Of a DNA stretch of 64,000 nt, positions 1 through 37,492 are shown piece after piece. Below the pieces are notes generated by a model. That model had not been told where the DNA came from, did no database searches, and was given only the letters and a program-made list of their open reading frames with translations. Source of the stretch: Tagaea sp. (GTDB taxonomy: Bacteria; Pseudomonadota; Alphaproteobacteria; CACIAM-22H2); assembly GCA_965279525.1 (NCBI GenBank), contig CBDIIB010000003.1:384001-448000 (forward strand), read 5' to 3'. Each line of letters opens with the position of its first letter. Positions within the stretch are counted from its first letter, which is position 1. A program made the translations under genes and the position numbers.

Positions 1-383
1 ACGACGTGGAGATTGGAGGCGGTCCACAGGTTCGCGGGCTCCGCGAGCGATGCCGGGATCGTCGCGGCCTCCGGCGACTTGTAGCTCTCGAACAGGCTGC
101 GGAAGGCACCCAGCGTGTTTGCGCTCGAACTCCAGAAGATGTCGGCCGCGGGCTTCGCGGCTTCGGCCTCCATTCGCCGGAGGAGCACGGCGCTGCCGCC
201 GGTGACGAAGTTGAACCGCACGTTGGCAAGCCGCTGGCGTCCCACGTCGGTGATCGACTGGACGGACTGCTGGTTGTTGGAGGTGTAGACGACGGCGTTA
301 CCGGCCGCCTGCGCGAAGGCCGGCAGTGCTGCGACGGTGCCGAGCCCGGCCAGGACGGTCCGGCGGTCGAGAAGGACAGACAT
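1..383 (-). CDS. ABC transporter substrate-binding protein, Fe3+/2-AEP/sugar-phosphate (AfuA/FbpA-like) family; 3' part outside window
   Basis: Read by hand (not in ORF track): ATG at 383 after AAGGGAG RBS; MSVLLDRRTVLAGLGTVAALPAFAQAAGNAVVYTS...GGSAVLLRRMEAEAAKPAADIFWSSS; twin-Arg-like signal; follows its permease and ATPase. Confidence 0.85.
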   Translation of the reverse strand, partial: MSVLLDRRTVLAGLGTVAALPAFAQAAGNAVVYTSNNQQSVQSITDVGRQRLANVRFNFVTGGSAVLLRRMEAEAAKPAADIFWSSSANTLGAFRSLFESYKSPEAATIPASLAEPANLWTASNLHV

Positions 384-415
384 GTGTTTCTCCCTTGCTT
401 GCGAAATCGTGGGTT

Positions 416-2059
416 TCATTTTGCGGCGAACAGGTCGAGCTTGAACCAAGTCGTCGCGACAAGGATCGGGACGAGGATGATGGAAACGAGCACCAGTCCG
501 TACGCCGAGGCCTGCGCCATCAGGTTGGAATCGATGAGGCGGAAGATCTGGATCGGCAGCGTCTCCTGTCCGGCCGAGTAGACCACGACCGAAGCACTCA
601 GTTCAGCCACCGTGGTCGTCCAGACAAGCACGCCTGCGGCCGCGACGGAGGGTACCATCAACGGGAACACGACCTTGAAAAAGGTCCGCAGGGGCGGGAC
701 GCCGAGGCTGATCGAGGCGTCCTCGATGGAATTCGGGATGTTGTAGAGCGTCGAGGAGGCATTGCGGATGCCGAACGGCAGGCGGCGGATCAGGTAGGCG
801 AGGACGACGATCCCGGCACCGCCCGCCAGCGGCAGCCAGCCGCCACTGAACGAGATGACGAGCCCGATACCGAGCACGGTACCCGACAGTGCCAGCGGCA
901 GGGCGGAGAGATAGTCGATCGCGGGCGTGAGGGCATTGCGCTTCTTGACGATCAGGAAGCCGACGAGCGTGCTGACGACGAGACTGAGCGCAGTGGCGAT
1001 CCCGGCGAAGGCGAGCGTGTTCCAGATCGGATCGGCGGCGTTGAGGAACACGCGTTCGAGATTGGCGGTCGTCCAGTCGCCCCAACGCATCACGGGGCCG
1101 CGCGCACGGGTAAAGGCACCGGCGATCACCGTCACGAGCGGCAGGATCGATACGACGACGATGAAAATCGCCGCGAGCCCGATCGGCAGGGCGGCCGCTC
1201 CCGCCAGCGGGCGCGGTTTCGCACCCCGGCCCTGGACGATCTCGTATCGTCCCCGCGCCACGATCCGGCGCTGGACGAACAGGACGCAGGCAACGATGGC
1301 GATGGATGCACTTGCCAGCGTGCTCTGCATCACCGGGTTTGTGCCGACCTCCGACACGAAGCTCTGGTAGGTCAGGACGGAGAGGAGCGGCACGCTGTGT
1401 CCAAGAATTGTCGCGACGGCGAAATTGCCGACGACCAGCGTGAAAACGAGCAGGGCACTCGCGAGGATGGCCGGCATCACCACCGGCACCATGACGTTGA
1501 CGAGCGAGCGGCCGGGCGGCACGCCGAGGCTCTGCGACGCTTCCTCCAGTTGGGAGTCGAACCCTCGGATCGCGGCCAGCGTGCCGATATAGACGTAGGT
1601 GTAGTAGATGAACGTCATGACCGTGATCAGGCCGAACCAGCCATAGAAGGACGGCAGACGGTAGCCCCAGTCGGCGGCGAGCCGGGTGAGGAAGCCGTTG
1701 TTGCCGAAGACCATCAGCCACGTCTGGGCGGCAATGACCTCGGGGACGATCAGCGTGGTCATCGGCAACAGTGCGATCAGCGCCTTGCCGGCGAACGAGA
1801 AACGCGCCGTGAAGAATGCGAGAGGCACGCCGATCAGCGTCGACGTGCAGGTCACGATCGCACCCAGCAGAAGCGTGTTGACGACCGCCGCCCGGTACTT
1901 GGCGTCCGTCGCCAATGTGACCCACCCGGACTGACCGTCTGCTCCGGCAACGAGACTTGTGCCCAGCACCTTGGCGAGCGGATAGAGCAGGAACAACACG
2001 GCGAGCGCCAGCGCCAGCGCCGAAAGCCAGAACCAGACATCGCGCAGCGGCCGGGTCAC
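416..2059 (-). CDS. ABC transporter permease, FbpB/AfuB-type (two fused TM domains)
   Basis: 547 aa, hydrophobic, two EAA loops (LEEASQSLG, IEDASISLG). Confidence 0.92.
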   Translation of the reverse strand: MTRPLRDVWFWLSALALALAVLFLLYPLAKVLGTSLVAGADGQSGWVTLATDAKYRAAVVNTLLLGAIVTCTSTLIGVPLAFFTARFSFAGKALIALLPMTTLIVPEVIAAQTWLMVFGNNGFLTRLAADWGYRLPSFYGWFGLITVMTFIYYTYVYIGTLAAIRGFDSQLEEASQSLGVPPGRSLVNVMVPVVMPAILASALLVFTLVVGNFAVATILGHSVPLLSVLTYQSFVSEVGTNPVMQSTLASASIAIVACVLFVQRRIVARGRYEIVQGRGAKPRPLAGAAALPIGLAAIFIVVVSILPLVTVIAGAFTRARGPVMRWGDWTTANLERVFLNAADPIWNTLAFAGIATALSLVVSTLVGFLIVKKRNALTPAIDYLSALPLALSGTVLGIGLVISFSGGWLPLAGGAGIVVLAYLIRRLPFGIRNASSTLYNIPNSIEDASISLGVPPLRTFFKVVFPLMVPSVAAAGVLVWTTTVAELSASVVVYSAGQETLPIQIFRLIDSNLMAQASAYGLVLVSIILVPILVATTWFKLDLFAAK

Positions 2060-3123
2060 GACGCGACCACGAGCGAGCGGGCGGGATCGAAGCGCAGCGC
2101 CACGCTTGCACCTACGGCATGAGGACTTGCCTCGTCGTGCGTTTCGACCCGGATCATGCGGCCGCCGGCAGTGCTGACCTGATATGTCGTTCGGCCGCCC
2201 AGATACTGCCGGCGAATCACCGTACAGGGGACGTCGCCGGTCGTTCCGCTTTCCCGTGGGAGAAGCCGGAGAGATTCGCAGCGTGCCACCAATATGGCCT
2301 TGCCGGGGCTGAGAGCCGCCGGTGCCGTCACTTCGACCGCCGCCCCGTCGAAGTCGATGCGCGTGCGGGCTCCACCGGCGACGGCGGAGGCAAGGGCGAT
2401 TTCGAGCGTGTTCGCGGCCCCGACGAAATCGGCGACATAGGCCGACACCGGGCGGGAATAGAGTTCCTCCGGCGTGCCGACCTGCTCGATCTGTCCCTCT
2501 CTGAGCAGGCCGATGCGGTCCGAGAGCGCCAGCGCCTCCTCCTGGTCGTGCGTGACGAGGATGGTCGTGATGCCGACCTGGCGCTGGAGGTCTGCGATCG
2601 TTTCGCGCACCTGCACGCGCAGCTTGGCGTCGAGGTTCGACAGCGGCTCGTCCATCAGCAGGACGGTCGGCTTGATCGCCAGCGCGCGCGCGAGTGCCAC
2701 GCGCTGGCGCTGGCCGCCGGACAGTGCTGCCGGCATGCGGTCGGCATAGGCGCTGAGCCCGACGCGCTCGAGATATTCGCCGACCGTCGCGTTGATCGCT
2801 GCCGCGTCCGCCTTCCGGGCACGCAGGCCGTAGGCGACGTTGTCGAACACGGTCTTGTCGGGAAAGAGCGCGTAGTCCTGGAACACCATGCCGATATCGC
2901 GCCGGTAGGCGGGGAGCTGCGTCACGTCGCGGTCGCCGAAATGCAGCGTTCCGGCGCGGACCGGGACGAAGCCGGCGATCGTGCGCAGCAAGGTCGTCTT
3001 GCCGCAGCCGCTTGGCCCGAGCAGGGTGAAGAGCGAGCCGTCGGCGACGTCGAGCGTCAGGCCCGAGATGACCGGGACGGAACCGTAACCAACAACCAGA
3101 TCCGTGATGCGGATGCCTGCCAT
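2056..3123 (-). CDS. ABC transporter ATP-binding protein, FbpC/PotA-type
   Basis: [28 protein letters not shown]; start trimmed to ATG 3123 (MAGIRITD). Confidence 0.93.
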   Translation of the reverse strand: MAGIRITDLVVGYGSVPVISGLTLDVADGSLFTLLGPSGCGKTTLLRTIAGFVPVRAGTLHFGDRDVTQLPAYRRDIGMVFQDYALFPDKTVFDNVAYGLRARKADAAAINATVGEYLERVGLSAYADRMPAALSGGQRQRVALARALAIKPTVLLMDEPLSNLDAKLRVQVRETIADLQRQVGITTILVTHDQEEALALSDRIGLLREGQIEQVGTPEELYSRPVSAYVADFVGAANTLEIALASAVAGGARTRIDFDGAAVEVTAPAALSPGKAILVARCESLRLLPRESGTTGDVPCTVIRRQYLGGRTTYQVSTAGGRMIRVETHDEASPHAVGASVALRFDPARSLVVAS

Positions 3124-3124
3124 G

Positions 3125-3898
3125 TCACGTGTTCTCCCGGATGATTTCCAGCGCCGCCGCGTGCCGCCGTGCATCGCCGGCGGCGAGCACGCGCGGGCCG
3201 CTTGCCAGCGTCAGTCGATCGCCGCGCCAATCGGTGATCACGCCACCTGCCCCCTCGATGATGGGCACGAACGCGGCAAAGTCGTGGATCTTGAGGCCGG
3301 CGTCGAGTGCGATGTCAGTCCGTCCGGAGGCGAGCCGCCCGTAGCTGAGTGCGGCCCCGCCATAGATGCGCCAGGCCGTGCAGGCGCTGAGTGCCGCAAG
3401 CGCGCGCTTCTCCTGAACGTCGAAAAAGTCCGGATTGCTGGCCGACATGATGGCACCGGGGAGATCGTCGCCCGGGCGCGTGCGGCAGATGGCGCCATCG
3501 TGCGTCGTCGGCCGACCCCGGGCACCGATCCAGCGCTCGCCTGTCGCCGGGAAGTGCATCGCGCCGACGACCGGCTCGCCGCGATGGGCAAGCGCTATGA
3601 GCGTACCGTAGACCGGCATGCCGGCAACGTAGGCCGCGGTACCGTCGATCGGATCAAGAATCCAGACGAACTCCGCCGCCGGCTGTTTGGCATCGAACTC
3701 TTCGCCGAGGATGCCGTGGTCGGGATATTCGGCGGCGATCATGTCGCGCAGGCGCCGCTCGATCGCGAGATCGAGTTCGGTGACGAACGATTTGTCGGGC
3801 TTGGTCCTGGAGCCCGCCGGACCGCCGGCACCGTCCCCGATCATGGCGGCGGCCGCGTCTGCAAGACGTTCGGCGAAGCTGACGAACGCAGCGTACAT
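3125..3898 (-). CDS. Inositol monophosphatase-family phosphatase (HisN-like)
   Basis: KPDKSFVTELD, GEE, WILDPIDGT, KIHDFAA; start trimmed to ATG 3898 (MYAAFVSFAE). Confidence 0.88.
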   Translation of the reverse strand: MYAAFVSFAERLADAAAAMIGDGAGGPAGSRTKPDKSFVTELDLAIERRLRDMIAAEYPDHGILGEEFDAKQPAAEFVWILDPIDGTAAYVAGMPVYGTLIALAHRGEPVVGAMHFPATGERWIGARGRPTTHDGAICRTRPGDDLPGAIMSASNPDFFDVQEKRALAALSACTAWRIYGGAALSYGRLASGRTDIALDAGLKIHDFAAFVPIIEGAGGVITDWRGDRLTLASGPRVLAAGDARRHAAALEIIRENT

Positions 3899-3947: not shown

Positions 3948-4826
3948 TCAGGGGCCTGTCCACCCGAAACGAGCCGCGAGATAGTCGGGCTGGGCCGGTG
4001 CCGTAGCCGTGAATTTCTGCCAGGCCGCGTCCGACGGCAGACCGCCGAACGTGATCTGCAGTTCTTCCATGTGTACGCCGCCGGCGACGAAAACGCTTCG
4101 CAGGCCCGCCGCTGCGGCCCCGCGGATGTCGTGATCGACGGAATCGCCGACGGCGACAACGCGGTTCCAGGCGACCGGCTCGAGAATGCGGCGGCTCTCC
4201 GCGTAGACCGACGGATGCGGCTTGCCATGCCACAGGACCGTGCCGCCACGCGCCTCGTACGCCCGCGCCACGACCCCGGCGGCCTCGTTGACCCCCGTGG
4301 GCGTCAGGCGCGCGAAATCGGGGTTGGCACAGACCATGGGCAGGCGGCGCGCGAGTGACTCGTCGAGTATGTCGCTCACGGACCCGACGAGCCCGGTCGC
4401 CTGTTCGAAGCCGACGACGCAAAGGAACTCCGCGTCGGCGACCCGTCCGACCATCTCGAGGCCGAGGCCGTCGAACAGTTCGCTGTCCTGGGGGCGTGCC
4501 AGTGCGAGGCACCGCCGACCGAGCGCGCGGTGTGCCGCATCGGGCCTTGTCGCGAGTGCCTGCCGGGCGGCATCGCCGGCGGTCACCAGCCCCTGATAGA
4601 GATCGGCGGGAATACCCATCCGGGAAAGCGTGCTGCGGTTATGGGCCGACAGACGGCCGGAATTGGACAGGATGACGACCTTCTTGCCGGCGGCACGCAT
4701 GCGGGCGAGGCTTTCAGCGGCACCGTCGTAGGGATTGGTGCCGTCGTGCAGCACGCCCCATTGGTCGAGGATGAAGCCGTCGAATTCACCCGCCAGATCG
4801 GACAGGGAACCGATGCGCCGCGCCAT
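3948..4826 (-). CDS. HAD-superfamily subfamily IIA hydrolase (TIGR01459-like)
   Basis: FILDQWGVLHDG (motif I), LSNSG, CANPD, GKP, VGDSVDHDI. Confidence 0.9.
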   Translation of the reverse strand: MARRIGSLSDLAGEFDGFILDQWGVLHDGTNPYDGAAESLARMRAAGKKVVILSNSGRLSAHNRSTLSRMGIPADLYQGLVTAGDAARQALATRPDAAHRALGRRCLALARPQDSELFDGLGLEMVGRVADAEFLCVVGFEQATGLVGSVSDILDESLARRLPMVCANPDFARLTPTGVNEAAGVVARAYEARGGTVLWHGKPHPSVYAESRRILEPVAWNRVVAVGDSVDHDIRGAAAAGLRSVFVAGGVHMEELQITFGGLPSDAAWQKFTATAPAQPDYLAARFGWTGP

Positions 4827-4827: not shown

Positions 4828-5625
4828 TCAGGTCACCTTCGAGCGGATATGGGCCGATAGCGCTTCGCTGGCGATCACGATGACGAGGATGGCGGCCAAC
4901 ACGACCACCACGCGGTCCCAGGCGAACTGGTTGATCGATGCGTAAAGCTGGAGCCCGATCCCGCCGGCGCCGACGAACCCGAGGACGCTTGATTCGCGGA
5001 CATTGATGTCCCAGCGATAGACCGATGTGCCGATCATCACCGGCATGACCTGGGGCAGGATCGCGACCGCGTAAGTCTGCAACGTGCCGGCGCCTGTCGC
5101 ACGGATGGCCTCGACAGGCCCCGGATCGGCCTCCTCGATCGCCTCGGCGACAAGCTTGGCAAGGAACCCGATTGACCGCGCGGCGACCGCCGCAATGCCG
5201 GCGACAGGGCCAGGTCCGAATATCGCGACGAACAGCAGCCCCCAGACGACGGTATTGACCGAGCGTGATGCGACCAGGATCGACCGGCCGACCAGCCAGG
5301 TCGTGCCGTTGAGCGTGGTATTTCGCGCGGCAAGGAACGCGATCGGCAGCGAGAACACGACTCCGATTGCCGTTCCGAGTGTGGCGATGTGGATCGTCTC
5401 GATGAGCGGATCCACGATGATGGCAAGATACGACCAGCGTGGCGGCCACATTCGGACGGCGAGGTCGGCCGCCTGCTCGTGCGCGTCGATGAAAAAGGCC
5501 CACTCGATCTCGAGCGCATCCACCGACCAGACGCAGGCGAACGCCACAGCGACCGTCCAGGCCCAATGCTCGGCCGACTGGCGCAGCGTGAACCGGCGCC
5601 AATGCGCGGGACTGGGCGCTTTCAT
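4828..5625 (-). CDS. phnE: PhnE/PtxC-family ABC permease
   Basis: [41 protein letters not shown]; start at ATG 5625 overlapping upstream stop. Confidence 0.88.
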   Translation of the reverse strand: MKAPSPAHWRRFTLRQSAEHWAWTVAVAFACVWSVDALEIEWAFFIDAHEQAADLAVRMWPPRWSYLAIIVDPLIETIHIATLGTAIGVVFSLPIAFLAARNTTLNGTTWLVGRSILVASRSVNTVVWGLLFVAIFGPGPVAGIAAVAARSIGFLAKLVAEAIEEADPGPVEAIRATGAGTLQTYAVAILPQVMPVMIGTSVYRWDINVRESSVLGFVGAGGIGLQLYASINQFAWDRVVVVLAAILVIVIASEALSAHIRSKVT

Positions 5626-6428
5626 CGGATGCGCCTCCGGACCCAGTCGCTGAACCATTCGCCGAAAGCGACGAGAAAAGCGATGCACAGCAGGATCGCC
5701 AGGCTGAAATCGAAGTCGTAGCGCGAGAACGAGGCGGAAAGCGTCTGGCCGATTCCGCCGGCGCCGACGATGCCGATCACGGTCGAGTGCCGCAGGTTCG
5801 CGTCGAGCCGGTAGATGATGACGCCCATCGACCGGGACAGGATCTGGGGAACGATCGCGAAGGCGACAGTCTGGCCGAACGGAGCACCGGTCGCCCGGAT
5901 CGCCTCGACCGGGCCTGGCTGGATATTCTCGATGTCTTCAGCCAGCATCTTGCCGAGGAAAATCGCGGACGACAGTGCCAAGGTCAGCAGGCCCGCAACG
6001 GCGCCGAACCCGAATAGCTTGACGAAGAAGATGGCAATTATCACCTCGTGGAACGTCCGGCCAGCAACGATGAAGCCGCGAGCCGCGACGTAAATCGGTC
6101 GGGGTGCCAGATTGCGCGCGGCACACAGCGCCAGCGGCAGGCTGAGCAATACACCCAGGACCGTCGCGGTCAGGGCCATCTGCATGCTCTCGATCATTCC
6201 ACGCGAGATGAGTTCCCAGCGCCCGAAATCGGGCGGCACCATGCGCACGAAAATGTCGGCGGCGCGCGGGATCCCAAGCAGAACGCGGTCGAGGCCTATT
6301 TCCAGGTCGCTGATCGACCAGACGACATAAAGACATGCCGCCGCAACGGCGAGGCGCTGGCGGGCAAGCGAGCCGAACAGCGGCCGCCGGCGCCAGACCG
6401 TCGGATAGGCGGAAGCCGTCGCGGTCAT
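5622..6428 (-). CDS. phnE: PhnE/PtxC-family ABC permease
   Basis: [34 protein letters not shown]. Confidence 0.88.
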
Positions 6429-7264
6429 GCGCCCTCGTCGTCGGCGATGGCCGGGCCGATCGTCCGGCTCCAGTCCTCGGCTCCGTAGATCTCGGTGAGG
6501 GCTTCGGCAGACAGCATCGCGGGCAGGCCATCGAATACGACACGCCCCTCCTTTAGGCCGATCACCCGGTCGGAGAAATCGCGCGCCAGGGCCACGTCGT
6601 GGATGTTGACCAGTGCCGGAGTCCGGCTCTCGGCCGCGAGGGCGCGGATCAGCCGCATGATCTGGCGGGCAGTCTTCGGGTCGAGGCTTGCCGTCGGCTC
6701 GTCGACGAGCAGCAGGTCGGGCCGCTGCATCAAGGCGCGGGCGATGCCCACGCGCTGGCGTTGGCCGCCCGAAAGCGCGTCGGCGCGGGTATCCTGGTAT
6801 CCGGCCAGCCCGACCTTGTCGAGGAGTTCAAATGCGCCAGCAATGTCGTCCGGCGCGAAACGGCGGGTGAGCGTGGCGAACAATCCGACATGGCCGAGCC
6901 GCCCGCTCAGCACGTTCTCCATGACGGTCAGACGTTCGACCAGATTGTACTCTTGGAAGATCATGCCGATCCGCCGCCGCGCCAGCCGCAGGCCATTGCG
7001 ATCGAGCGTGGTCATGTCGACCCCACCGAGACGGATCATGCCGCCGGTCGGTTCGACGAGCCGATTGACGCAGCGGATCAGCGTGCTCTTGCCGGCACCG
7101 GACGATCCGATGATCGCGACGACACCCGGATCGGCAATATCGAAATCCACGCCGGCAAGTGCGGCCTTGCCCGTGGGATAGACCTTGTGCAGGCCCCGGA
7201 CCGATAGGAGCGGTGCGTCCGCCGGCCGGAGGCCGGCGGACGAGTCAGTTGTCGATGCAGTCAC
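6425..7264 (-). CDS. phnC: PhnC-family ABC ATP-binding protein
   Basis: [41 protein letters not shown]. Confidence 0.9.
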
Positions 7265-7267
7265 TTT

Positions 7268-8269: not shown

Positions 8270-8299
8270 TTGACTGTTCCTCCCGGGGTTGAGGTTCAA

Positions 8300-29220: not shown

Positions 29221-30089
29221 CCTTGGTGCCCCCGGCGGCCGATTGCCATCATCGCGACAGACAGAACCGTCGTGATGACGACGAGAATGATCGCGGCCGC
29301 CCCGGCGAGGCCGACCGAGCCGATCGTGAAGGCAGTCTTGTAGACGTAGAGCGGAAGGATCGTCGTGGCATTGCCCGGTCCGCCGTCAGTCAACGCGTAG
29401 ATTGGCCCGAATGCCTGGAAAGCAAGGATCGCTTGAAAGAGGCTGCTGCCGATCAGCACCGGCCAGAGTTGCGGCATGACGATGCGCCAGAAGACCTGGC
29501 GGTCCGTGCAGCCGTCGAGCCGGGCGGCTTCGAGAGGCTCCGGCGCGATGTTGCGCAGGCCGGCCAAAAGCATCAGTGCGGAGAGCGGGAAGTGCATCCA
29601 CACCAAGACGACGATGACGGAGGTCAGCGCCCAAGTCTGACCGAGCCAGACAATCTTGTAACCGAGCAGCGCCTGGGCCGCCGCGTTGACGATGCCAAAG
29701 TCGTAGCTGAGCATCAGTTTCCACATCAGGCCGGCGATCGCAGGATTGACGGCCATGGGCATGATGATCAGCGTCGTGGCGATGTATTCGAAGCGCAGCT
29801 TCTTGTTCAGCAGCACGGCCACGCCGAGGCCGAGTGCCGTCTTCAGCACGACACTGACCGCTGCGACGATCAGGCTGAGGCGGATCGACGGCCAAAACTC
29901 GACCTCGCGGCCCGAGAACAGGCGCCGGTAGTTCGCGAGGCCGACGAACTCATGGTCGGCCCAGTCGTAGCCGATCTCGAAGGACGTGAGACTGATATAG
30001 CCGAGCAGCGCCACCGGCACGCTGCTCAGAAGTACAAGCGGCAGGGCGGTTGGCGTGATCCAGAGCCAGATGTTCGAGAGCCTGTTCAT
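29217..30089 (-). CDS. Carbohydrate (CUT1) ABC permease, MalF-like
   Basis: FVGLANY, LEAARLDG, TDGGPG. Confidence 0.92.
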   Translation of the reverse strand: MNRLSNIWLWITPTALPLVLLSSVPVALLGYISLTSFEIGYDWADHEFVGLANYRRLFSGREVEFWPSIRLSLIVAAVSVVLKTALGLGVAVLLNKKLRFEYIATTLIIMPMAVNPAIAGLMWKLMLSYDFGIVNAAAQALLGYKIVWLGQTWALTSVIVVLVWMHFPLSALMLLAGLRNIAPEPLEAARLDGCTDRQVFWRIVMPQLWPVLIGSSLFQAILAFQAFGPIYALTDGGPGNATTILPLYVYKTAFTIGSVGLAGAAAIILVVITTVLSVAMMAIGRRGHQG

Positions 30090-30105
30090 CCCGCCGCAGG
30101 TGCGA

Positions 30106-31458
30106 CTAACTTCCCTTCTTGATGCGCTGCGAGATCTGCTCCAGTTCGGGAACAGCGCCTGCCAGAGCGGCTTCGGGCGTCATCTTCTTGAGCAGTGCCT
30201 GGCCGGCATAGTAACCGGCAACCTGATGGATCTTGGTCGATTCCATCGTCGCGGGTACCCAGTTGCGGCCCGTCGCCAGCAGATTGCCGGCGGCGTCGAG
30301 GCTGTCCTTCAGCGCCTTGGCGAGATCCGGATCGTTTCGGACGAACGTGGCGTCAGTCAGGACGGAGAGGCGCGAAGGCACACCGCCCTTGGCGAGATTC
30401 TCCATCGCTTTCGCTTTCGACGTCATCCACGCGACGAAAGCCCAGCCGGCGTCCTTCTGCCGGCTGTTGCTCGGCAGGCCGAGACTCCATCCGCCGATGG
30501 GGCCGAAACGCCCTTCCGGCCCGCGCGGCGGCGCGACATAACCGATCTTGCCGACGACCTTGGACTTTGTCGCGTCGACAAGCCAAGGCTGCAGGGACGT
30601 TGCATCAAACCACATCGCGGTCTTGCCGGACGCAAAGGCCGAAACGGCGGCATCCCACGTATAGGTCTCGATATCGGGCGGCGCGTTCGAGAGGAGATCG
30701 AGGAGATACTTGAGCGAGGCCAGCGTCTGAGGCGTATTGATCTTAACGTCCCAAGTCTTCTGGTCGAGGATGGCGCCGCCAAAGGCCGGCGTGAACAGGT
30801 CCCAGCTCAGCGCGAGAGTGCGTCCCGTCTCGGCGCGCATCGAGATGCCGTAAAGGCCCGGTTCCTTGTTCTGGAAGAACCGAGCCGTCTCGAGCAGGTC
30901 CTGCATCGTTTCGGGCGGCTTGCGACCGTATTTCTCGAAGAGATCCTTGCGGTAGGAGACGAAGAACGTCTCGCCGGCGATCGGGACGCCGACCGTCAAG
31001 CCGCCGATCGAGCCGAGGCCACTTCGATAGGCGACGTGGATGTCTTCGAAATCGTAATCCGAGGGTGTTGCGTCGGCATTCTTCAAGAACGGGCCTAAGT
31101 CCGTCAACATCCGCTTAGCGCCGTATTCGGCCAGGGCGGTGCCGCGGACCATATAGACGTCGTACGAGGAATCGCGCGCGGTCTGTGCGAGCAGCTGCTT
31201 GGACATGATCTCGCCGCCGCCGACAGTTTCCCATACGACCTTGATGCCGGTCGCCCGTTCGAAATCCGGCGTCATCGCCTTCATCGCGTCGGAGGCAGGA
31301 TGGGAGATTGCGAGCACGCGGATCGATGCGCCGTCATGCTTGCCTTTGATGGCCTTTTGCCAGCCTTCGAAATCAGCAGCTCGGGCACCCGCGGGAAAAG
31401 CTGCACCTGCGGCAACGAGGCCGCCTGCGAGGATGAGGGCGCGTCGGGAAATCGACAT
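30106..31458 (-). CDS. Carbohydrate (CUT1) ABC substrate-binding protein
   Basis: Tat-like SRRALIL; FERATGIKV, YRKDLF, GGWSLG; AGGAGG RBS. Confidence 0.9.
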   Translation of the reverse strand: MSISRRALILAGGLVAAGAAFPAGARAADFEGWQKAIKGKHDGASIRVLAISHPASDAMKAMTPDFERATGIKVVWETVGGGEIMSKQLLAQTARDSSYDVYMVRGTALAEYGAKRMLTDLGPFLKNADATPSDYDFEDIHVAYRSGLGSIGGLTVGVPIAGETFFVSYRKDLFEKYGRKPPETMQDLLETARFFQNKEPGLYGISMRAETGRTLALSWDLFTPAFGGAILDQKTWDVKINTPQTLASLKYLLDLLSNAPPDIETYTWDAAVSAFASGKTAMWFDATSLQPWLVDATKSKVVGKIGYVAPPRGPEGRFGPIGGWSLGLPSNSRQKDAGWAFVAWMTSKAKAMENLAKGGVPSRLSVLTDATFVRNDPDLAKALKDSLDAAGNLLATGRNWVPATMESTKIHQVAGYYAGQALLKKMTPEAALAGAVPELEQISQRIKKGS

Positions 31459-31478
31459 GTTTCCTCCTTGATTTCTAC

Positions 31479-31521
31479 GATTTGAGCATTTGCCCTATGT
31501 TAGGGCGTATGCTCACAAATC
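31479..31521. promoter_or_regulatory. SorC-family operator, copy 2 (upstream of CUT1 SBP)
   Basis: GATTTGAGCATTTGCCC-TATGTTA-GGGCGTATGCTCACAAATC; TGAGCA-N21-TGCTCA; overlaps minus-strand TTGACA-N17-GAGCAT. Confidence 0.75.
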
Positions 31522-31580
31522 GCTCCGACAATGTCAATGCTCGCGCGGATTCTGTCCCCTGCGGCCCTGGCGCGGCGTGC

Positions 31581-32240
31581 CTATACGTGTTCGCCGCGGA
31601 AGTCGCGGATCACGCGCGTTGCTCCGACTGCCCGCAGCGGGTGGGTATCATCAATTTGCGCGGCGTGCTGGTCTATGCCGACCGTCTCGACGCCTGCCGC
31701 TACGCCCGCGCGCACGCCGGCAGCGGAGTCTTCGTAGACGCGTGCGGCTCCAGCCTCGACACCGAGCTGCGCCAGCGCGGTCAGATAGGGAAGGGGATCG
31801 GGCTTGCCGCGCGCCAGTTCGTCGCCGATCACCAGTGTGCCGAACACCGCCAGCAGCCCGAGCCGGCCGAGGATCAATTCGGCGTTTGCGCGCGGCGCGT
31901 TGGTAACCGCGGCGATGGCAAGGCCAGCCGCTCGGGCGCGGTCGATGAGGTCGCACACGCCTGGCGTGGGCTCGATCGAAGCGAGGAGGCTGCGGAAGAG
32001 CGCTTCTTTGCGCTCGGGCAGCGCGCGCGCGATCGCCGGATCGAGCATGGGAAAGTTCCGCCCTACGATGGCGTCGCTGGTCAATCCGATGAAATCTCGC
32101 GCATAGCGTACCGGATCGATCGTCAGCCCGAGCTCGCGATGGATACGCGTCCAGGCTTCGTAGTGAACGGCCTCCGTGTCCGTCAGCGTTCCGTCGATAT
32201 CGAAGAGCAGGGCACGCAGGCGAGAGACGGGTGGCGCCAT
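31581..32240 (-). CDS. HAD-superfamily IA phosphatase (beta-PGM/CbbY-like)
   Basis: LFDIDGTL, VTNA, GKPDP, YEDS; ATG 32240. Confidence 0.88.
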   Translation of the reverse strand: MAPPVSRLRALLFDIDGTLTDTEAVHYEAWTRIHRELGLTIDPVRYARDFIGLTSDAIVGRNFPMLDPAIARALPERKEALFRSLLASIEPTPGVCDLIDRARAAGLAIAAVTNAPRANAELILGRLGLLAVFGTLVIGDELARGKPDPLPYLTALAQLGVEAGAARVYEDSAAGVRAGVAAGVETVGIDQHAAQIDDTHPLRAVGATRVIRDFRGEHV

Positions 32241-32403: not shown

Positions 32404-33429
32404 ATGATCCGGAAATCATTCGCTGTAGCGGCCCTGGTGTTCGGCATTCCGCTGACGCCGGCACACGCCCAAGGCAGCCTCAACCTATCCTGCTCCGTGC
32501 AGGTCGAGTGGTGCCAGGCCGTGGCCACGAACTTCCAGAAGGCGACCGGCATCAATGTCGCGATGACGCAGCGCGGCTCGGGCGAGGCGCTCGCCCAGCT
32601 GCGCGCCGAGGCGCAGAACCCGCGCACTGACGTGTGGTTCGGCGGCACCGGCGACCCGCACCTGATTGCAGCCGAGGAAAACCTGACAGTCGACTACAAG
32701 TCGGCCGCAAACGGCCAGCTCCAGGCTTGGGCGTTGCGCCAGTATGAAATTTCCAAAGGCCGCTCGATCGGCATCTATTCGGGCGCCATCGGCTTCGGGT
32801 TCAATACCGAACTGCTTGCCAAGAAGGGCCTGCCGGCCCCGGCCAGTTGGGCCGACATCCTGAAGCCGGCCTACAAGGGCGAAATCCAGATCGCCAACCC
32901 GAACTCGTCGGGCACGGCCTATGTCGTGATCGCCACACTCGTCCAGCTGATGGGCGAGCCCAAGGCATTCGAGTATCTCGCCGCCATGCACAAGAACGTC
33001 AATGCGTATGCGCGTTCGGGCACCGGTCCGATCAAGGCGGTGGCGCGCGGCGAGACGGCCGTGTCGCTGTCGTTCGTCCACGACGCGGTGACCGAGTCCA
33101 ATGCCGGGTTCCCGGTCGGCTGGGCCACGCCGAGCGAAGGCACGGGCTACGAGATCGGCTCGATGTCGATCGTGCGCGGGGCGCGCAACATCGCGCAGGC
33201 GCGCCGCTTCTACGACTGGGCGCTGACGCCGGAGGCCCAACGCTTGGGCTACGAAGCCGGTGGCCAGTTGCAGATGCCCTCGAACAAGGCAGCACCGCTA
33301 CCGCCAAAGGCACCGGACCTGTCGAAGTTGAAGCTCGTCGAGTACGATTTCGTCAAGTATGGCCAGGCCGCAGAACGCCGCCGCCTGCTGGCGAAGTGGG
33401 ACGCCGAGATCGGCTCGCTGCCGCGCTGA
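32404..33429 (+). CDS. afuA: AfuA-like sugar-phosphate ABC substrate-binding protein
   Basis: NPRTDVWFGGTGDPH, QIANPNSSGTAY, SFVHD, PSEGTGYEIG resemble the AfuA clade as recalled. Confidence 0.78.
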   Translation: MIRKSFAVAALVFGIPLTPAHAQGSLNLSCSVQVEWCQAVATNFQKATGINVAMTQRGSGEALAQLRAEAQNPRTDVWFGGTGDPHLIAAEENLTVDYKSAANGQLQAWALRQYEISKGRSIGIYSGAIGFGFNTELLAKKGLPAPASWADILKPAYKGEIQIANPNSSGTAYVVIATLVQLMGEPKAFEYLAAMHKNVNAYARSGTGPIKAVARGETAVSLSFVHDAVTESNAGFPVGWATPSEGTGYEIGSMSIVRGARNIAQARRFYDWALTPEAQRLGYEAGGQLQMPSNKAAPLPPKAPDLSKLKLVEYDFVKYGQAAERRRLLAKWDAEIGSLPR

Positions 33430-33463
33430 ACCACGCAACGGCGGCCGGGCCCGGAACGCATCG

Positions 33464-35674
33464 ATGAAGCGCCTCGACCCGGCCGTTGTCTGGTGGCTCC
33501 TCGCCACCGTTGGCTTCGCCATCCTGCCTTGGCACATGGCACAGGAGCCGCGGCCGATCGCTGGCTATTTCGCGGCCTTCGCAGCGGACGAGGATTCCGC
33601 CGCCGCGCTTGCACAGATGCTGGTCTTCGGGCGTTGGTGGTTCTGGCCAGTTGCTGCCTCACTCGTCCTTGCGTTACCCGCCTTCGTGCCTGATTTGCCG
33701 CGCCCACGGCGGGCGCGCTGGCTTTTGGCGGCAGGGCTCGCCGGGCTTGCGGCGGTGATCCTGCAAGGCTGGTTCGTTGGCGTGCGCGGCTGGAGCTACA
33801 ACTGGCTCGAGACCGCGTTCGGCGTGATCGATGGCCGGCAGTTCGGCATCGGTTGGGGCGGTTCCCTTGCCTTCTTCGCCTTCATGCTGATGGCGACGGA
33901 CGGGCTGGCATTGAAGGGTCGCTTCGGCGGCGACAGATTCGTATCGGCGAGCGTAGGCATCCTCGTCGCTTCGATCGCGATTTTTACCGTGTGGCCGGTG
34001 CTCACGCTGCTTGGCCAGATATTCACCGCACCTGCTGACCAGACGCTGCTTGCCGCGACTGCCGACCGGCTGTTCGCGCCGAAGATATGGAGTCTCGCCT
34101 GCGTCGTGTCGGGATCGAGCTGCGGCGTGGCGTGGAACACGATCGTGCTTGCACTTGCGACCGCGACCTGCGCCACGCTGCTCGGGCTCGCCTTCGCGCT
34201 GATCGCGACGCGCACCGGCTTCAAGCTGAAGCGCCCGTTGCGCCTGCTCACGGTGTTGCCGATCATCACGCCGCCCTTCGTCATCAGCCTCGGCCTGATC
34301 CTGATCTTCGGCCGCTCGGGCCTGGTCAACCAAGCGGCGAGTTCCTGGTTCGACGTCGAACTCGGCCGCTGGATCTATGGCTTCGACGGCGTGCTGCTCG
34401 CCCAGGTCTTCAGCTTCACGCCGACGGCCTTCCTCGTGCTGATCGGCGTGGTCGAGGGTATCTCGCCGACGATGGAGGAAGCCTCGCAGACACTGCGGGC
34501 CAGCCGCATGCGCTCGTTCCTGACCGTCACGCTGCCGCTGATGCGCCCCGGCCTCGCAAACGCCTTCCTCATCGTGTTCATCGAGAGCATTGCCGATTTC
34601 GGCAACCCCATCGTGCTCGGCGGCTCGTTCGGCGTGCTGTCGACCGAGATCTTCTTCGCCGTTGTCGGCGCGCAGGCCGATTTCGGCCGCTCGGCCACGC
34701 TTGCCTCGATCCTGCTTGTTTACGCGCTCGCAGCGTTCTTCCTGCAGCGGCGCGTCGTCGGACGAGGCTCCTACGTCTCGATGTCGGGCAAGGGGGATGC
34801 CGGCCTCGCGTCCCCGTTGCCCGTGCCGGTGGAGCGCGCTGCCTACGCGCTTGCCCTGCCGTGGGCGGCATTGACGGTCACGGTCTATGCATTGGCACTT
34901 GCCGGCGGCTTCGTCACGGTGTGGGGCCGCGACTGGACGCCGACGCTCTCGCATTTCAGCCGAGCTTTCGCGGTCGAGTTTGGCCCAGCCGGAATCATCT
35001 GGGCGGGCGGGGCGTGGAACTCGTTCTGGACGACGATCCAGCTCGCCAGCATCGCCGCCCCGCTGACGGCCGGTATCGGTCTGCTCGCGGCCTGGATTCT
35101 GGCGCGCCAGCGCTTCGCCGGGCGCGGCATGCTCGAATTCGCGCTGATGCTCAGTTTCTGCGTGCCGGGCACGGTAATCGGTGTTGCCTACGTCCTGACC
35201 TACAACATTCCGCCGGTCGAGATCACCGGCACGGCCGCGATCCTCGTGGCGTGTTTCGTGTTCCGCAACATGCCGGTCGGCGTTCGCTCGGGCCTCGCAG
35301 CGATTAGCCAACTCGACAAGAGCCTCGACGAGGCTTCGTCGACATTGCGCGCTTCGACCGCGCGCACGCTGCGCAAGGTGGTTTTGCCACTGCTCAAGCC
35401 CGCAATCGTCACGGCACTGATCTACAGCTTCGTTCGAGCGATGACGACCGTCAGCGCCGTCATCTTCCTCGTTTCGGCGCAGCACGAGATGGCAACCGTC
35501 TACATCATCAACCGCGTCATCAACGGCGATTACGGCATCGCGATCGCCTACGCGACTGTTCTGATCGTCCTGATGATGGTGGCGATCGGACTCATCCAGC
35601 TTCTGGTCGGCCGGCGGCGCATCGGCCGGCGCAGTTCCGATCCCATCCCGCACGCCGCCGGAGCGCAAGCATGA
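33464..35674 (+). CDS. afuB: AfuB-like long ABC permease
   Basis: ~736 aa with extra N-terminal TM region; LPIITPPFV, MEEASQTLRA, ADFGNP, LDEASSTLRA. Confidence 0.8.
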   Translation: MKRLDPAVVWWLLATVGFAILPWHMAQEPRPIAGYFAAFAADEDSAAALAQMLVFGRWWFWPVAASLVLALPAFVPDLPRPRRARWLLAAGLAGLAAVILQGWFVGVRGWSYNWLETAFGVIDGRQFGIGWGGSLAFFAFMLMATDGLALKGRFGGDRFVSASVGILVASIAIFTVWPVLTLLGQIFTAPADQTLLAATADRLFAPKIWSLACVVSGSSCGVAWNTIVLALATATCATLLGLAFALIATRTGFKLKRPLRLLTVLPIITPPFVISLGLILIFGRSGLVNQAASSWFDVELGRWIYGFDGVLLAQVFSFTPTAFLVLIGVVEGISPTMEEASQTLRASRMRSFLTVTLPLMRPGLANAFLIVFIESIADFGNPIVLGGSFGVLSTEIFFAVVGAQADFGRSATLASILLVYALAAFFLQRRVVGRGSYVSMSGKGDAGLASPLPVPVERAAYALALPWAALTVTVYALALAGGFVTVWGRDWTPTLSHFSRAFAVEFGPAGIIWAGGAWNSFWTTIQLASIAAPLTAGIGLLAAWILARQRFAGRGMLEFALMLSFCVPGTVIGVAYVLTYNIPPVEITGTAAILVACFVFRNMPVGVRSGLAAISQLDKSLDEASSTLRASTARTLRKVVLPLLKPAIVTALIYSFVRAMTTVSAVIFLVSAQHEMATVYIINRVINGDYGIAIAYATVLIVLMMVAIGLIQLLVGRRRIGRRSSDPIPHAAGAQA

Positions 35675-36744
35675 CCGACAGCACCCGCAAGAACGCCGGC
35701 GTCCGGCTCGATGGAATCGTCAAGCGCTACGGCAGCGTCGTGGCCGTCAAGAAGCTGTCGCTGGACATTAAACCGGGCACGCTCGTCACGCTGCTCGGCC
35801 CATCAGGCTGTGGCAAGACAACATTGCTGCGCATGGTCGCGGGACTTGAAGTACCCAGCGAAGGCCGCATCGAAATCGGTGGAACGGACGTCACCCAGCT
35901 TTCGGCGCGCGAGCGCAACGTCTCGATGGTGTTCCAGTCCTACGCCTTGTTCCCGCATATGAACGTCACCGAGAATGTCGCGTACGGCCTCATCTCCAGC
36001 GGCATGAACAAGCCGGATGCAGCGAAGAAGGCCATGCGGGCACTCGAAACTGTCGGCCTCTCGGGGTATGGCGAGCGGCTGCCTTCCGAGATGTCGGGCG
36101 GCCAGCAGCAACGCGTTGCGGTGGCACGCGCACTGGTGCTGGAGCCTGACGTGCTGCTTTTTGACGAACCACTATCGAATCTTGACGCACGGCTGCGCCG
36201 CTCGATGCGCGAAGAGATCCGTGCCCTGCAGCAGGCGCTGGGGCTTACGGCCGTTTACGTCACGCACGACCAGAGCGAGGCGCTGGCGGTTTCCGATACG
36301 ATCGTCGTGATGCGTGCGGCCGAGATCGCGCAAGCCGGGACTCCTGCCGAACTCTATGACGCGCCCCGCGACGTGTTTGTCGCGACGTTCATGGGCGAGG
36401 CGAACCATGTGCGCGGGCGCCTCGACGCCAAGAACGGCGCCGTCGGCCGCGTGGCGCTCGACCGCGCTTTCGTGGATCTGCCACACCGCGAACTGCCGCT
36501 CGGCCCGATCGACCTGGTCATCCGCCCAGAGGCGATAAGTCTGGCGGCACCCGATGCAGCCGGCGACGCGCTGGAAGGCCGTGTGGCGCGCGCGACCTTC
36601 ATGGGCTCGCATGTCGAGTATCATGTTGATACCGCACTCGGCGACCTGTTCGCCGTGGTCCCACGCGCCGCAACCTTCCGGCCGGTCGGGTCATCTGTGC
36701 GTGTGCTGCTCGATCCGAAAGGCGCGATTCTCGTTCGTCCGTAG
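35671..36744 (+). CDS. afuC: AfuC/FbpC ABC ATP-binding protein
   Basis: GPSGCGKT, MSGGQQQR, LFDEPLSNLD. Confidence 0.85.
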   Translation: MTDSTRKNAGVRLDGIVKRYGSVVAVKKLSLDIKPGTLVTLLGPSGCGKTTLLRMVAGLEVPSEGRIEIGGTDVTQLSARERNVSMVFQSYALFPHMNVTENVAYGLISSGMNKPDAAKKAMRALETVGLSGYGERLPSEMSGGQQQRVAVARALVLEPDVLLFDEPLSNLDARLRRSMREEIRALQQALGLTAVYVTHDQSEALAVSDTIVVMRAAEIAQAGTPAELYDAPRDVFVATFMGEANHVRGRLDAKNGAVGRVALDRAFVDLPHRELPLGPIDLVIRPEAISLAAPDAAGDALEGRVARATFMGSHVEYHVDTALGDLFAVVPRAATFRPVGSSVRVLLDPKGAILVRP

Positions 36745-36796
36745 TTGTCGCCTTTCCATAACGGGCGACAGGAGCGAGGATCCACAGTCGGTGCCC

Positions 36797-37492
36797 CGGC
36801 AGACGCGCAAGAAGTACTCGTCGGAAGGGAAGATCCGGATCGTGATCTCGGGGCTCCGCGGCGAGCACTCGATCGCCGAGCTGTGCCGGCGGGAGGGGAT
36901 CGCGGAGAGCCTGTATTACGTGTGGTCCAAGGAGTTCATGTCGACCGGCAAGAAGCGGCTGGCCGGCCACACCGAGCGCCAGGCGTCGTCGGGCGACGGC
37001 TGCGTGTGTTGACGTTGTTCGATATCTACGCCCGGGAATCCCTGGCCATCGAGGTCGACAAGGGCCTCACTGGCGAGGAGTCGCCGATATCCTTCGGCGT
37101 GTCGTTACCCGAAGGGGCGCACCCGCGCGTATTCGTCTCGATAACAATCCCGAGTTCGTCTCGACCGCACTCGATCGATGGGCCTACGAGAACGGCGTCA
37201 CGCTGGACTTCAGCCGGCCCGGCAAGCCGATCGACAACACTTATGTCGAATCATTCAATGGCAGGCTGCGCGAAGAATGTCTGAATGTGCATTGGTTCTT
37301 GTCTCTGGACGACGCCCGGAACAAGATCGAGGCGTGGCGGCGGTTCTACTACGAGAGCCGTCCTCACACGGTCCTTGGCAGCAAAACGCCGAACGAGTTC
37401 GCCTTGTCCGCCGGGCTTCGGCCCGCGTCATGAGGTGAAGAAAAGGGCTCGAAGCTCACTCCCGAGCTGGTTGGGAAACCGGGGCACAGTCA
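36797..37492 (+). mobile_element. Degenerate IS3-family remnant (OrfA fragment joined to frameshifted OrfB integrase core; right end preserved)
   Basis: OrfA RQTRKKYSSEGKIRIVISGLRGEHSIAELCRREGIAESLYY (36797-36990); OrfB GRRLRVLTLFDIYARESLAIEV from 36991, frameshift ~37080, then RLDNNPEF...FSRPGKPIDNTYVESFNGRLREECLN...RPH, stop 37433; end ...CGGGGCACAGTCA at 37492. Confidence 0.85.

Follow-up and report, generated by a model that had tools for sequence, protein, structure and literature searches.

Clustered ABC importers and cytoplasmic phosphoesterases suggest modular organophosphate uptake in the alphaproteobacterium Tagaea sp.

The first 36,744 nucleotides of a 64-kb stretch of Tagaea sp. 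DNA (Alphaproteobacteria; GenBank assembly GCA_965279525.1, contig CBDIIB010000003.1, positions 384,001 to 448,000; the whole stretch is called the window, and all positions below are window positions), together with the remnant of an IS3-family insertion sequence (IS) at their right edge, encode six ABC importers set among seven phosphoester hydrolases. Our preferred reading, which we hold at a probability of about 0.6, is that separate, substrate-inducible modules have accumulated in this region, each of which would import an organophosphate and hydrolyze it in the cytoplasm, and that the region is not an iron or phosphonate locus. Each module would combine a periplasmic substrate-binding protein (SBP) and an ABC permease with one or two cytoplasmic phosphoesterases and, usually, a local sugar-type repressor. 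The host is probably a soil or water alphaproteobacterium in which at least two, and probably four, of the importers take phosphorylated sugars or glycerol phosphate. The substrates, enzyme activities, and regulation proposed here are inferred from homology, residues, motifs, fold, and gene order. Use of the cargo as a source of carbon, phosphorus, or both is plausible, and the local regulators belong to the LacI and SorC families here and to the DeoR/GlpR family in relatives.

Genes were picked by third-position GC content together with Pfam and NCBIfam scans, and hydrophobic signal peptides were judged by eye on the translations. The scans gave four Afu/Fbp-type importers, one PhnCDE-type importer, and one CUT1 importer, the same six that an earlier reading of the letters alone (the sequence-only reading) had listed. 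The four Afu-type systems each have a fused two-domain permease, an ATPase (with a TOBE_2 domain in three of the four), and a binding protein of the SBP_bac_6/11 type, and are called modules A (1-3174, minus strand), 1 (14092 to ~17930, minus strand), 2 (20777-24648, plus strand), and 4 (32404-36744, plus strand). The phosphoesterases comprise three inositol monophosphatase-family proteins (IMPases), two HAD hydrolases, one DSPc Cys-phosphatase, and one beta-CASP protein of the metallo-beta-lactamase (MBL) fold. No signal peptide was seen in any of these seven, compared with all five complete SBPs and the truncated SBP of module A (SBP-A). This agrees with what had been claimed for the set, and each of the six importers does share its gene string with a phosphoesterase or stand divergent from one. 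One correction applies to module 4, whose own operon lacks a phosphatase here and has only a divergent HAD gene.

On the minus strand, 17 genes with abutting or overlapping stops and starts run from ~17930 to position 1. In the order of transcription they encode the module 1 SBP, ATPase, and permease, an FGGY kinase, a LacI regulator, a RhaI-like isomerase, a RhaD-type protein, PhnD/C/E/E-type subunits, a HAD-IIA hydrolase, IMPase 1, and the module A ATPase, permease, and SBP. The plus strand from 18143 carries IMPase 2, a second LacI regulator (LacI2), the Cys-phosphatase, the ATPase, SBP, and fused permease of module 2, and the MBL protein, followed by a SorC regulator and an SDR. Back on the minus strand, 27648-32240 contains IMPase 3, two CUT1 permeases, the CUT1 SBP, and a HAD-IA hydrolase. 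The sugar-catabolic enzymes (RhaD-type aldolase/SDR fusion, RhaI-like isomerase, FGGY kinase, and SDR) and the regulators (two LacI, 11691-12725 on the minus strand and 19054-20076 on the plus strand; one SorC, 25833-26780, plus strand) are as the sequence-only reading described them, as is the lack of iron genes: no iron-related Pfam match occurred in 1-40 kb, and the window yielded no gene for a TonB receptor, a siderophore, Fur, Irr, or RirA.

The four "iron-type" SBPs do not look like ferric-binding proteins. The best solved relatives of SBP1 (module 1), SBP2 (module 2), and the module 4 SBP were 8X1A, for which we found no paper describing the structure, AfuA (4R72-75, sugar-phosphate complexes), and the pyridoxal phosphate (PLP) binder P5PA. 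Ferric proteins matched at 1e-8 to 1e-14, compared to 1e-24 to 1e-84 for AfuA/8X1A, and were 8 to >60 orders of magnitude worse. In AfuA, Ser37 and Thr150 hold the phosphate, while His205, Asp206, and Glu229 hold the sugar and form the family-defining motif; the authors of the AfuA paper left open whether other predicted iron transporters are misannotated (PMC4546632). The module 4 SBP keeps all five residues. SBP1 has Thr for S37, Ser for T150, Glu-Glu for H205/D206, and Gln for E229; SBP2 has Thr, Ala, Gly-Asp, and Ile at these positions; and full-length orthologs of SBP-A have Ser, Thr, Ala-Asn, and Ser or Thr. In SBP1, SBP2, and the SBP-A orthologs, most of the phosphate-side pocket residues are thus retained, while those facing the sugar differ, and because the His-Asp/Glu sugar motif is absent from them, these three were not classed as AfuA. 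The AfuA gene makeup (AfuA-homologous SBP, fused permease, and ATPase) is present in modules 1, 2, and 4 and, since the SBP of module A is truncated, in module A by way of its orthologs. These three are 25 to 29% identical to one another, and each has its own orthologs across genera. By these comparisons, AfuA as its authors define it is present only in module 4, and the other three form separate, old branches.

Module 4 comprises an AfuA-type SBP (32404-33429), a long fused permease (33464-35674), and an ATPase (35671-36744), all on the plus strand and assigned by Pfam and PDB searches. The SBP matched AfuA (4R72) with an E value of 1e-79, and the five ligand residues are intact in four of its five plasmid orthologs, the Pantoea protein having Ala at S37. 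In a nucleotide search of plasmids, module 4 alone was matched, at 70 to 78% identity. An IMPase gene follows the AfuABC ATPase in five of the six orthologous loci inspected (Ponticoccus, a record labeled Roseateles, Pararhizobium, Pantoea dispersa, and Sinorhizobium meliloti pSymB). In the window this slot (36745-37440) is occupied by the IS remnant that had been noticed at the right edge, which consists of degenerate IS3-family fragments at ~36.78-37.44 kb (an OrfA HTH fragment and two OrfB fragments, 36780-37440, plus strand; Pfam HTH_Tnp_1 and translations). The IS3 insertion may have displaced or deleted the IMPase of module 4, of which no trace is left at this position. IMPase 2 (18143-18991, plus strand; Pfam, 7.9e-52), ~14 kb from module 4, is the closest of the three window IMPases to those linked to AfuABC (37 to 42% identity). 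The divergent HAD-IA hydrolase (31581-32240, minus strand) belongs to the beta-phosphoglucomutase/YqaB superfamily (TIGR02009, 121.7 bits, below the cut-off of 153) and has an N-terminal DxDG motif and no signal peptide. The organophosphate reading is strongly supported for module 4, which by its residues is predicted to be a true AfuABC that would import hexose-6-phosphate-type sugars, with IMPase 2, 14 kb away, as a relative of the IMPase usually found after the ATPase. The module 4 permease has 736 amino acids, of which ~165 precede the first match to the permease model; its plasmid orthologs are of the same length (~735 to 745 amino acids).

Support is equally strong for the PhnD/C/E/E module, which we call Gpx after its closest described counterpart. 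Its PhnD-type SBP (7268-8299, minus strand) matched the GpxB structure 9LF9 with an E value of 1.8e-85 and is predicted to bind glycerol-1-phosphate and/or glycerol-3-phosphate. Eight of the nine published GpxB ligand residues (PMC12718374) are identical in it (G112, Y138, S168, N169, S170, H199, R223, and T247), and the ninth, T111, is conservatively replaced by Ser. The Arg223/Thr247 pair, which replaces the Glu/Asp of PhnD proteins that bind 2-aminoethylphosphonate (2-AEP), is thus present. The remainder of the GpxBACD gene set is there as well: a PhnC-type, GpxA-like ATPase (6425-7264; TIGR02315, 302 bits, above the cut-off of 266) and two PhnE-type, GpxC/D-like permeases (4828-5688 and 5622-6428; TIGR01097, 280 and 253 bits, above the cut-off of 216.7), all on the minus strand. 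The next gene encodes a HAD-IIA hydrolase of the TIGR01459 family (3948-4826, minus strand; 172 bits, above the cut-off of 103.75), and HAD-IIA genes fill the same slot after phnE in Paracoccus, Sulfitobacter, and Deinococcus. Comparison of two tblastn lists for co-occurrence of HAD-IIA and GpxB gave one shared record, with roseobacter HADs falling below the E-value limit, and was replaced by the inspection of eight gpx-like plasmid loci. A HAD hydrolase (IIA, IIB, or unclassified) is attached to or divergent from the operon in five of the eight, and glpD adjoins it in two. The HAD-IIA protein is likely a glycerol-phosphate phosphatase, which would free glycerol and phosphate; after this step the archaeal enantiomer would re-enter metabolism via glycerol kinase.

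Two plasmids carry relatives of this module in other settings. On an Agrobacterium tumefaciens plasmid, a GpxB-like PhnDCEE set of ~50% identity (positions 4932-8431 of the locus, L086) lies between pstCAB-phoU and arsenic resistance genes and lacks a phosphatase; it may bind a ligand other than that of GpxB. Among plasmids, the HAD-IIA protein has its closest relative (43% identity) on Burkholderia plasmid pBTU (L098, 1668-12179), where the neighbors of that relative are two FGGY kinases, glycerol-3-phosphate dehydrogenases, class II aldolases, and a TIM-barrel protein, surroundings that look like a polyol-phosphate pathway.

For module A the evidence is the recurrence of its operon. IMPase 1 (~3125-3898; HisN-like and predicted to be cytoplasmic; Pfam Inositol_P, 6.7e-49; TIGR02067, 240.6 bits, below the cut-off of 275) is followed by an ATPase with ABC_tran and TOBE_2 domains (2056-3174, start uncertain; Pfam and NCBIfam), a fused two-domain permease (416-2059; two BPD_transp_1 stretches, NCBIfam best match PhnU2, below cut-off), and SBP-A (1-419), all on the minus strand. 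The window edge cuts SBP-A after its N-terminal 139 codons, which encode a Tat/Sec-type signal and then the SBP N-lobe; its ATG (419-417) overlaps the permease stop (ATGA). SBP-A is 51% identical over 129 amino acids to the SBP of a Paracoccus denitrificans IMPase-ABC operon, and relatives of IMPase 1 on Paracoccus and Shinella plasmids are 56 to 62% identical to it. Among the matches listed, 8 of 12 IMPase 1 records have an Afu-like SBP ~3.5 kb downstream on the same strand. In two annotated loci (Paracoccus and Shinella; 62% identical IMPase), the four genes form an IMPase-ATPase-permease-SBP operon with a divergent DeoR/GlpR regulator, a family that often senses sugar phosphates. This recurrent IMPase-first operon lends good support to module A as a predicted organophosphate importer. 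Because SBP-A orthologs keep the phosphate-holding Ser/Thr while the sugar pocket differs, the module would likely take another monophosphate, of a polyol or a sugar; inositol phosphate would be a guess.

Module 2 is distinguished by the company its importer keeps. A Cys-based dual-specificity-type phosphatase (DSP; 20188-20799; Pfam DSPc, 34.8 bits, just above the cut-off of 33.5) precedes the ATPase (20777-21880), SBP2 (21904-22896), and fused permease (22903-24648), which were assigned by Pfam, NCBIfam, and PDB searches, and a compact beta-CASP MBL-fold hydrolase (24686-25771; Pfam, fold model, and Foldseek), likely a phosphodiesterase, follows them, all on the plus strand. SBP2 has 416 relatives at an E value of 1e-20 or better. 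A scan of species-representative genomes with 14 aligned SBP2 orthologs confirmed 526 relatives; the best 80 loci were kept with 10-kb flanks, and neighbors were counted by tblastn of the window proteins. The MBL gene lies on the same strand within 6.5 kb of the transporter in 51 of these 80 loci, or in 47 when the count is limited to the 72 whose downstream flank reaches 5 kb or more, and the DSP gene is found in 27 of the 80. In six loci (Billgrantia, Halomonas, Brenneria, Wohlfahrtiimonas, and a metagenome-assembled genome [MAG]) a His_Phos_1 gene stands after the MBL gene in place of the DSP, and five Erwinia loci have a PAP2-family gene after that of the permease; in total, one or more of the four phosphoesterase types are present in 57 of the 80 loci. 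The swapping of one phosphatase family for another at the same position is good evidence for a phosphate-ester cargo. In the Erwinia loci (L015-L021, ~12812-14080) the PAP2-family protein has 422 amino acids, with a porin gene behind it in one species; since PAP2 enzymes are mostly membrane bound or periplasmic, hydrolysis in Erwinia may take place outside the cytoplasm.

The sequence match of the MBL protein to beta-CASP RNases is weak. A single-sequence model was unusable (pLDDT 39); a model remade from an alignment of 36 orthologs had a pLDDT of 91 and a pTM of 0.91. Its top Foldseek matches were CPSF3/CPSF73, TTHA0252, archaeal CPSF, Integrator-11, and RNase J (E values to 1e-20, TM 0.74). 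MBL motifs 1 to 4 (D30; H56/H58/D60/H61, HxHxDH; H119; D139) are invariant in the 36 sequences. The fold match spans the entire protein; of candidate residues for beta-CASP motifs A, B, and C, D161 and H312 are invariant, and no second invariant His was found. The protein is very probably a compact (361 amino acids), active beta-CASP enzyme, as judged from the model and motifs. In the DSP, the HCRGGRSRS loop (C131-R137-S138) and the upstream D89 are invariant in 22 orthologs. A phosphodiesterase-like beta-CASP enzyme beside a transporter suggests a phosphodiester substrate. In the mechanism that we propose, the phosphodiester would be imported whole, the compact beta-CASP enzyme would cut it in the cytoplasm, and the Cys-phosphatase would remove the remaining phosphate. 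The conserved and nonorthologously replaced partners are good support for module 2 as a putative organophosphate importer. The sequence-only reading had assigned each module a different sugar- or polyol-phosphate, which is too narrow here, where the beta-CASP enzyme points to a phosphodiester.

SBP2-type relatives range from Rhizobiales and Rhodobacterales to Erwinia, Pantoea, and Halomonadaceae, with at least 526 in species-representative genomes, and none of the papers listed in a literature search described an importer/beta-CASP operon. We tentatively raise the possibility that module 2 represents a widespread, unstudied route for the uptake of whole phosphodiesters, built from a divergent "iron"-family SBP, a beta-CASP enzyme, and a Cys- or His-phosphatase.

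A perfect 16-bp palindrome, TTGCAC-N4-GTGCAA (20092-20107, found by motif scan), lies between LacI2 (19054-20076, plus strand; Pfam) and the DSP gene, before the DSP-ABC operon, and is the sole such site in the window at up to two mismatches. The exact palindrome recurs in six SBP2-type loci from four genera, where it directly precedes the first transporter gene, and in Ponticoccus and Pantoea, where it precedes the AfuA-type SBP gene (loci sharing the palindrome: L001, L006, L009, L010, L035, L044, L089, and L093). At up to two mismatches it is present at the promoter in 21 of 47 ATPase-first SBP2-type loci, and four of six AfuABC loci have it in two to three copies. LacI2 is 40 to 44% identical to the LacI proteins that accompany AfuABC-IMPase operons. 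That the module 2 and module 4 types have a regulator lineage and an operator in common hints at chemically related inducers, and LacI2 would repress the module 2 operon through this candidate operator. Farther right, a ~40-bp repeat with an inverted TTTGAGCAT/ATGCTCAAA-type core occurs before the SDR gene (~26790-26850) and before the CUT1 operon (~31465-31525). This repeat is probably the site of the SorC regulator, joining the SDR and CUT1 units.

Ligand residues thus favor organophosphate over iron or phosphonate for modules 4 and Gpx, and conserved partners favor it for modules A and 2; the sequence-only reading had extended this to every importer, an extension that module 1 and the CUT1 module leave doubtful. 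The pairing of transporter and phosphoesterase, for which a check in other genomes had been proposed, recurs there for the Gpx, A, 2, and 4 types. In module 1, the Afu-like SBP1 (16914-17933, start uncertain; AfuA the best PDB match, 1e-32), ATPase (15771-16838), and fused permease (14092-15774; both by Pfam and NCBIfam) are followed on the minus strand by an FGGY-family sugar kinase (12722-14095; Pfam FGGY_C_2, 2.7e-48), LacI-family regulator 1 (11691-12725; Pfam and NCBIfam), a RhaI-like sugar isomerase (10402-11694; TIGR02629, 492.6 bits, below the cut-off of 646.75; ~51% identical to rhizobial RhaI), and a bifunctional class II aldolase/SDR of the RhaD type (8300-10399; TIGR02632, 889.6 bits, above the cut-off of 567.75). 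SBP1 has 76 full-length relatives of at least 57% identity among the matches listed, none of them functionally named; against plasmids it reached at most 35% identity, the matches being module A-type SBPs and not SBP1 orthologs. The CUT1 system (28423-31458, minus strand; Pfam) consists of an SBP (30106-31458) and two permeases (28423-29220 and 29217-30089) and has no ATPase of its own. IMPase 3 (27648-28421; Pfam, 4.4e-29) is the last gene of this operon, one base from the permease gene, and the SorC-family regulator (25833-26780) and SDR oxidoreductase (26868-27641) lie beyond it on the plus strand (Pfam and NCBIfam). The CUT1 SBP had no NCBIfam match. For both modules a neutral-sugar reading appears at least as good as an organophosphate one, and either way each would feed a sugar or polyol into catabolism.

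Several observations weigh against organophosphate import, some of them for these two modules and some more widely. The kinase and rhamnose-type pathway of module 1 argue for an unphosphorylated sugar entering catabolism, and SBP1 lacks the AfuA sugar triad, with Glu-Glu/Gln for His-Asp/Glu. The best PDB matches of the CUT1 SBP are 5IAI ("Sugar ABC transporter") and 4RYA ("(Sorbitol)"), at E values of ~1e-32; none of its 23 solved matches at an E value of 1e-5 or better is named UgpB or glycerol-3-phosphate-binding, and neither this SBP nor IMPase 3 has plasmid relatives. In module 2, SBP2 retains one of the two phosphate-binding hydroxyls (T150 is Ala), and 23 of the 80 SBP2-type loci, some of them on short contigs, have none of the four phosphoesterase types. 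To our knowledge, the characterized beta-CASP members are all nucleases that cut phosphodiester bonds of RNA or DNA, and to propose a small-molecule substrate is to extrapolate. Neither a HAD gene nor glpD is present in three of the eight gpx-like plasmid loci, one of which is in an arsenic/pst context. The Pseudoroseomonas AfuABC locus, one of the six inspected, has no IMPase or adjacent phosphatase, and because glucose-6-phosphate and fructose-6-phosphate are usable as carbon without dephosphorylation, the role of the AfuABC-linked IMPase is unexplained. A Pho-box scan of the window with a consensus gave two matches at three mismatches compared with 2.8 expected, which is not above chance; both are in promoters, upstream of the AfuA-type SBP gene and of the CUT1 SBP gene at 52 kb.

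The main rival account is a mixed cluster in which only the AfuA- and GpxB-type systems import phosphoesters, while the other four import neutral sugars or polyols and the phosphatases act on internal intermediates, relieving sugar-phosphate stress or finishing a pathway. Such a cluster would accommodate the isomerase, kinase, and aldolase of module 1, which resemble a rhizobial rhamnose locus that uses a neutral-sugar transporter, the sugar and sorbitol labels on the nearest solved relatives of the CUT1 SBP, the SDR and SorC genes that flank the CUT1 operon with a shared operator, and the absence of the AfuA sugar triad from SBP1, SBP2, and the SBP-A orthologs alike. It does less well with the phosphate-side Ser/Thr kept in SBP1 and the SBP-A orthologs and with the DeoR/GlpR regulators over the module A orthologs, and the DSP/His_Phos_1/PAP2 swaps together with an MBL gene in 51 of 80 SBP2-type loci are hard to explain for a neutral substrate. 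We regard the mixed cluster as a serious but unlikely account and retain the reading of separate organophosphate modules.

That modules A, 1, and 2 import phosphonates such as 2-AEP, like PhnS, AepX, or AepS of the same Pfam family, is improbable. The top NCBIfam matches of all Afu-like subunits are indeed the PhnS2/T2/U2 "putative 2-AEP" models, and AepX and PhnS are members of PF13343 (PMC8316502). However, all of these matches fall far below the cut-offs (for example, 130 to 189 bits for the SBPs, compared with a cut-off of 392), and the 2-AEP binder 4R6Y matches SBP1 (2e-7) and the module 4 SBP (2e-11) far worse than AfuA does and is absent from the matches of SBP2. The 64 kb yielded no phnW, phnX, phnA, phnY/Z, or C-P lyase gene, and the linked enzymes are phosphoester hydrolases. 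Still less probable is that module 1 imports an anionic nonphosphate 6-deoxy sugar, for example a sulfonated one, to be split by its rhamnose-type enzymes as in sulfoglycolysis. Its isomerase, 1-kinase, aldolase, and aldehyde dehydrogenase parallel sulfo-EMP pathways (PMC9594981), and SBP1 retains the anion-side hydroxyls, but analogy is the sole footing of this proposal: the sulfoglycolysis enzymes described in that source are of other families (YihS/SqvD, YihV/SqiK, and YihT/SqiA), and the window showed neither a sulfoquinovosidase nor a sulfonate exporter. Ferric iron import by the four Fbp/Afu-type systems, as implied by the source database names "iron(III) transport system substrate-binding protein" and "iron ABC transporter permease," is hardly credible beside SBPs whose best solved relatives bind sugar phosphates and PLP, local regulators of sugar type, and a window free of the iron genes searched for.

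The region had also been called a modular island. It is modular: the Gpx-, A-, 2-, and 4-type modules each occur alone in other genomes. There is no sign of a single transferable block. G+C content is an even 62 to 68% throughout the window, which contains no tRNA gene and no Rfam match, and the degenerate IS3 remnant is the only mobile trace. The nearest relative, a 6.7-kb Rhodospirillales MAG contig (L001), has 81% DNA identity over 19081-24456, from LacI2 through the permease, and diverges left of LacI2, where a LysR gene stands in place of IMPase 2. That it shares module 2 without its left neighbor argues for module-wise assembly. In the gammaproteobacterium Billgrantia montanilacus, one locus (L063, 4372-20000) contains gpxBACD, an SBP2-type importer with MBL and His-phosphatase genes, an IMPase gene, and a further Afu-like ABC system, a grouping within ~16 kb which suggests that clustering of such modules recurs independently.

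To the right of the region are housekeeping-type genes for FliG, an RpoH-like sigma factor, an NtrC-type activator, and a Liv-type ABC system. The complete FliG gene (40372-41394) lies between a MarR regulator gene and an amidohydrolase gene, and no other flagellar gene is present in the window. The phosphorus theme extends beyond the part of the window to which it had been confined, to 52-64 kb. This second block contains a CUT1 system with an SBP (52369-53853), permeases (53876-54787 and ~54790-55854), and an ATPase with a TOBE_2 domain (55835-56920); a GDPD gene (56917-57744), an Exo_endo_phos (EEP) hydrolase gene (within 57357-58790), and a second GDPD gene (58756-59622); and pstS (59787-60827), pstC (60916-62298), pstA (to 63605), and the start of pstB (from 63606). 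Genes for phosphorus acquisition are thus clustered along the entire window.

The error once made with AfuABC may affect thousands of bacterial "iron(III) ABC transporter" annotations. This locus brings together four divergent branches of that transporter family, each with phosphoester hydrolases as partners, and offers a panel for testing. It also suggests a missing step of the GpxB pathway, in which a conserved HAD phosphatase would convert archaeal glycerol-1-phosphate to glycerol. If the beta-CASP ancestry of the module 2 enzyme reflects its substrate, a nucleotide-derived diester is possible (a dinucleotide, a short oligonucleotide, or a cyclic or sugar-linked nucleotide); a plant or algal sugar phosphodiester is an alternative, given the operator and LacI lineage shared with AfuABC operons. 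Such routes would bear on the use of dissolved organic phosphorus by soil and marine bacteria.

The kind of system described here is already known from AfuABC, GpxB, acc, and Ugp. Module 4 has the same three genes as AfuABC of Actinobacillus pleuropneumoniae and Citrobacter rodentium and all five ligand residues, while modules A, 1, and 2 agree with it in fold and architecture, with AfuA the best solved relative of SBP1 and SBP2, and differ in lacking the His-Asp/Glu sugar motif (PMC4546632). In alphaproteobacteria and Pantoea, AfuABC has a LacI regulator before it and an IMPase after it; the word "phosphatase" does not occur in the main text of the AfuABC paper (PMC4546632). The Gpx module resembles GpxBACD of Phaeobacter sp. 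MED193 and others in its PhnD-family SBP with Arg223/Thr247 and the phosphate ligands, its PhnC, and its two PhnE proteins (PMC12718374). It differs in the attached HAD hydrolase, found here and in five of eight related plasmid loci; the words phosphatase, hydrolase, dephosphorylation, and GlpK are absent from the main text of the GpxB paper (PMC12718374).

The logic proposed for module 2 is that of the acc operon of Agrobacterium Ti plasmids (AccA-E, AccF phosphodiesterase, and AccG phosphatase), in which a sugar phosphodiester is imported whole, cut in the cytoplasm, and then acted on by a phosphatase, with the phosphosugar as inducer (PMC4526662). The protein families are unrelated. Module 2 combines an Afu-type SBP and a beta-CASP MBL enzyme with a LacI regulator and a Cys-phosphatase; in acc, the SBP (AccA) is of the oligopeptide type and the phosphodiesterase (AccF) of the GDPD type. 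The MBL protein shares its fold and metal-binding motifs with the beta-CASP nucleases CPSF73, RNase J, and TTHA0252 but differs from them in size (361 compared with >430 amino acids), in lacking RNA-binding extensions, in having a single invariant His after motif A, and in being encoded in an ABC importer operon with a phosphatase. The second block (52369-59622), a CUT1 ABC system with two GDPD genes and an EEP gene next to pstSCAB, resembles Ugp with UgpQ/GDPD, in which glycerophosphoesters enter through an ABC importer and are hydrolyzed in the cytoplasm, whereas the CUT1 system at 28423-31458 is not UgpB-like and carries an IMPase instead of a GDPD. What appears to be new relative to these systems is the recurrent coupling to phosphatases, among them one that may dephosphorylate glycerol phosphate in the Gpx pathway, three putative uncharacterized SBP subfamilies, and a predicted importer/beta-CASP/phosphatase operon.

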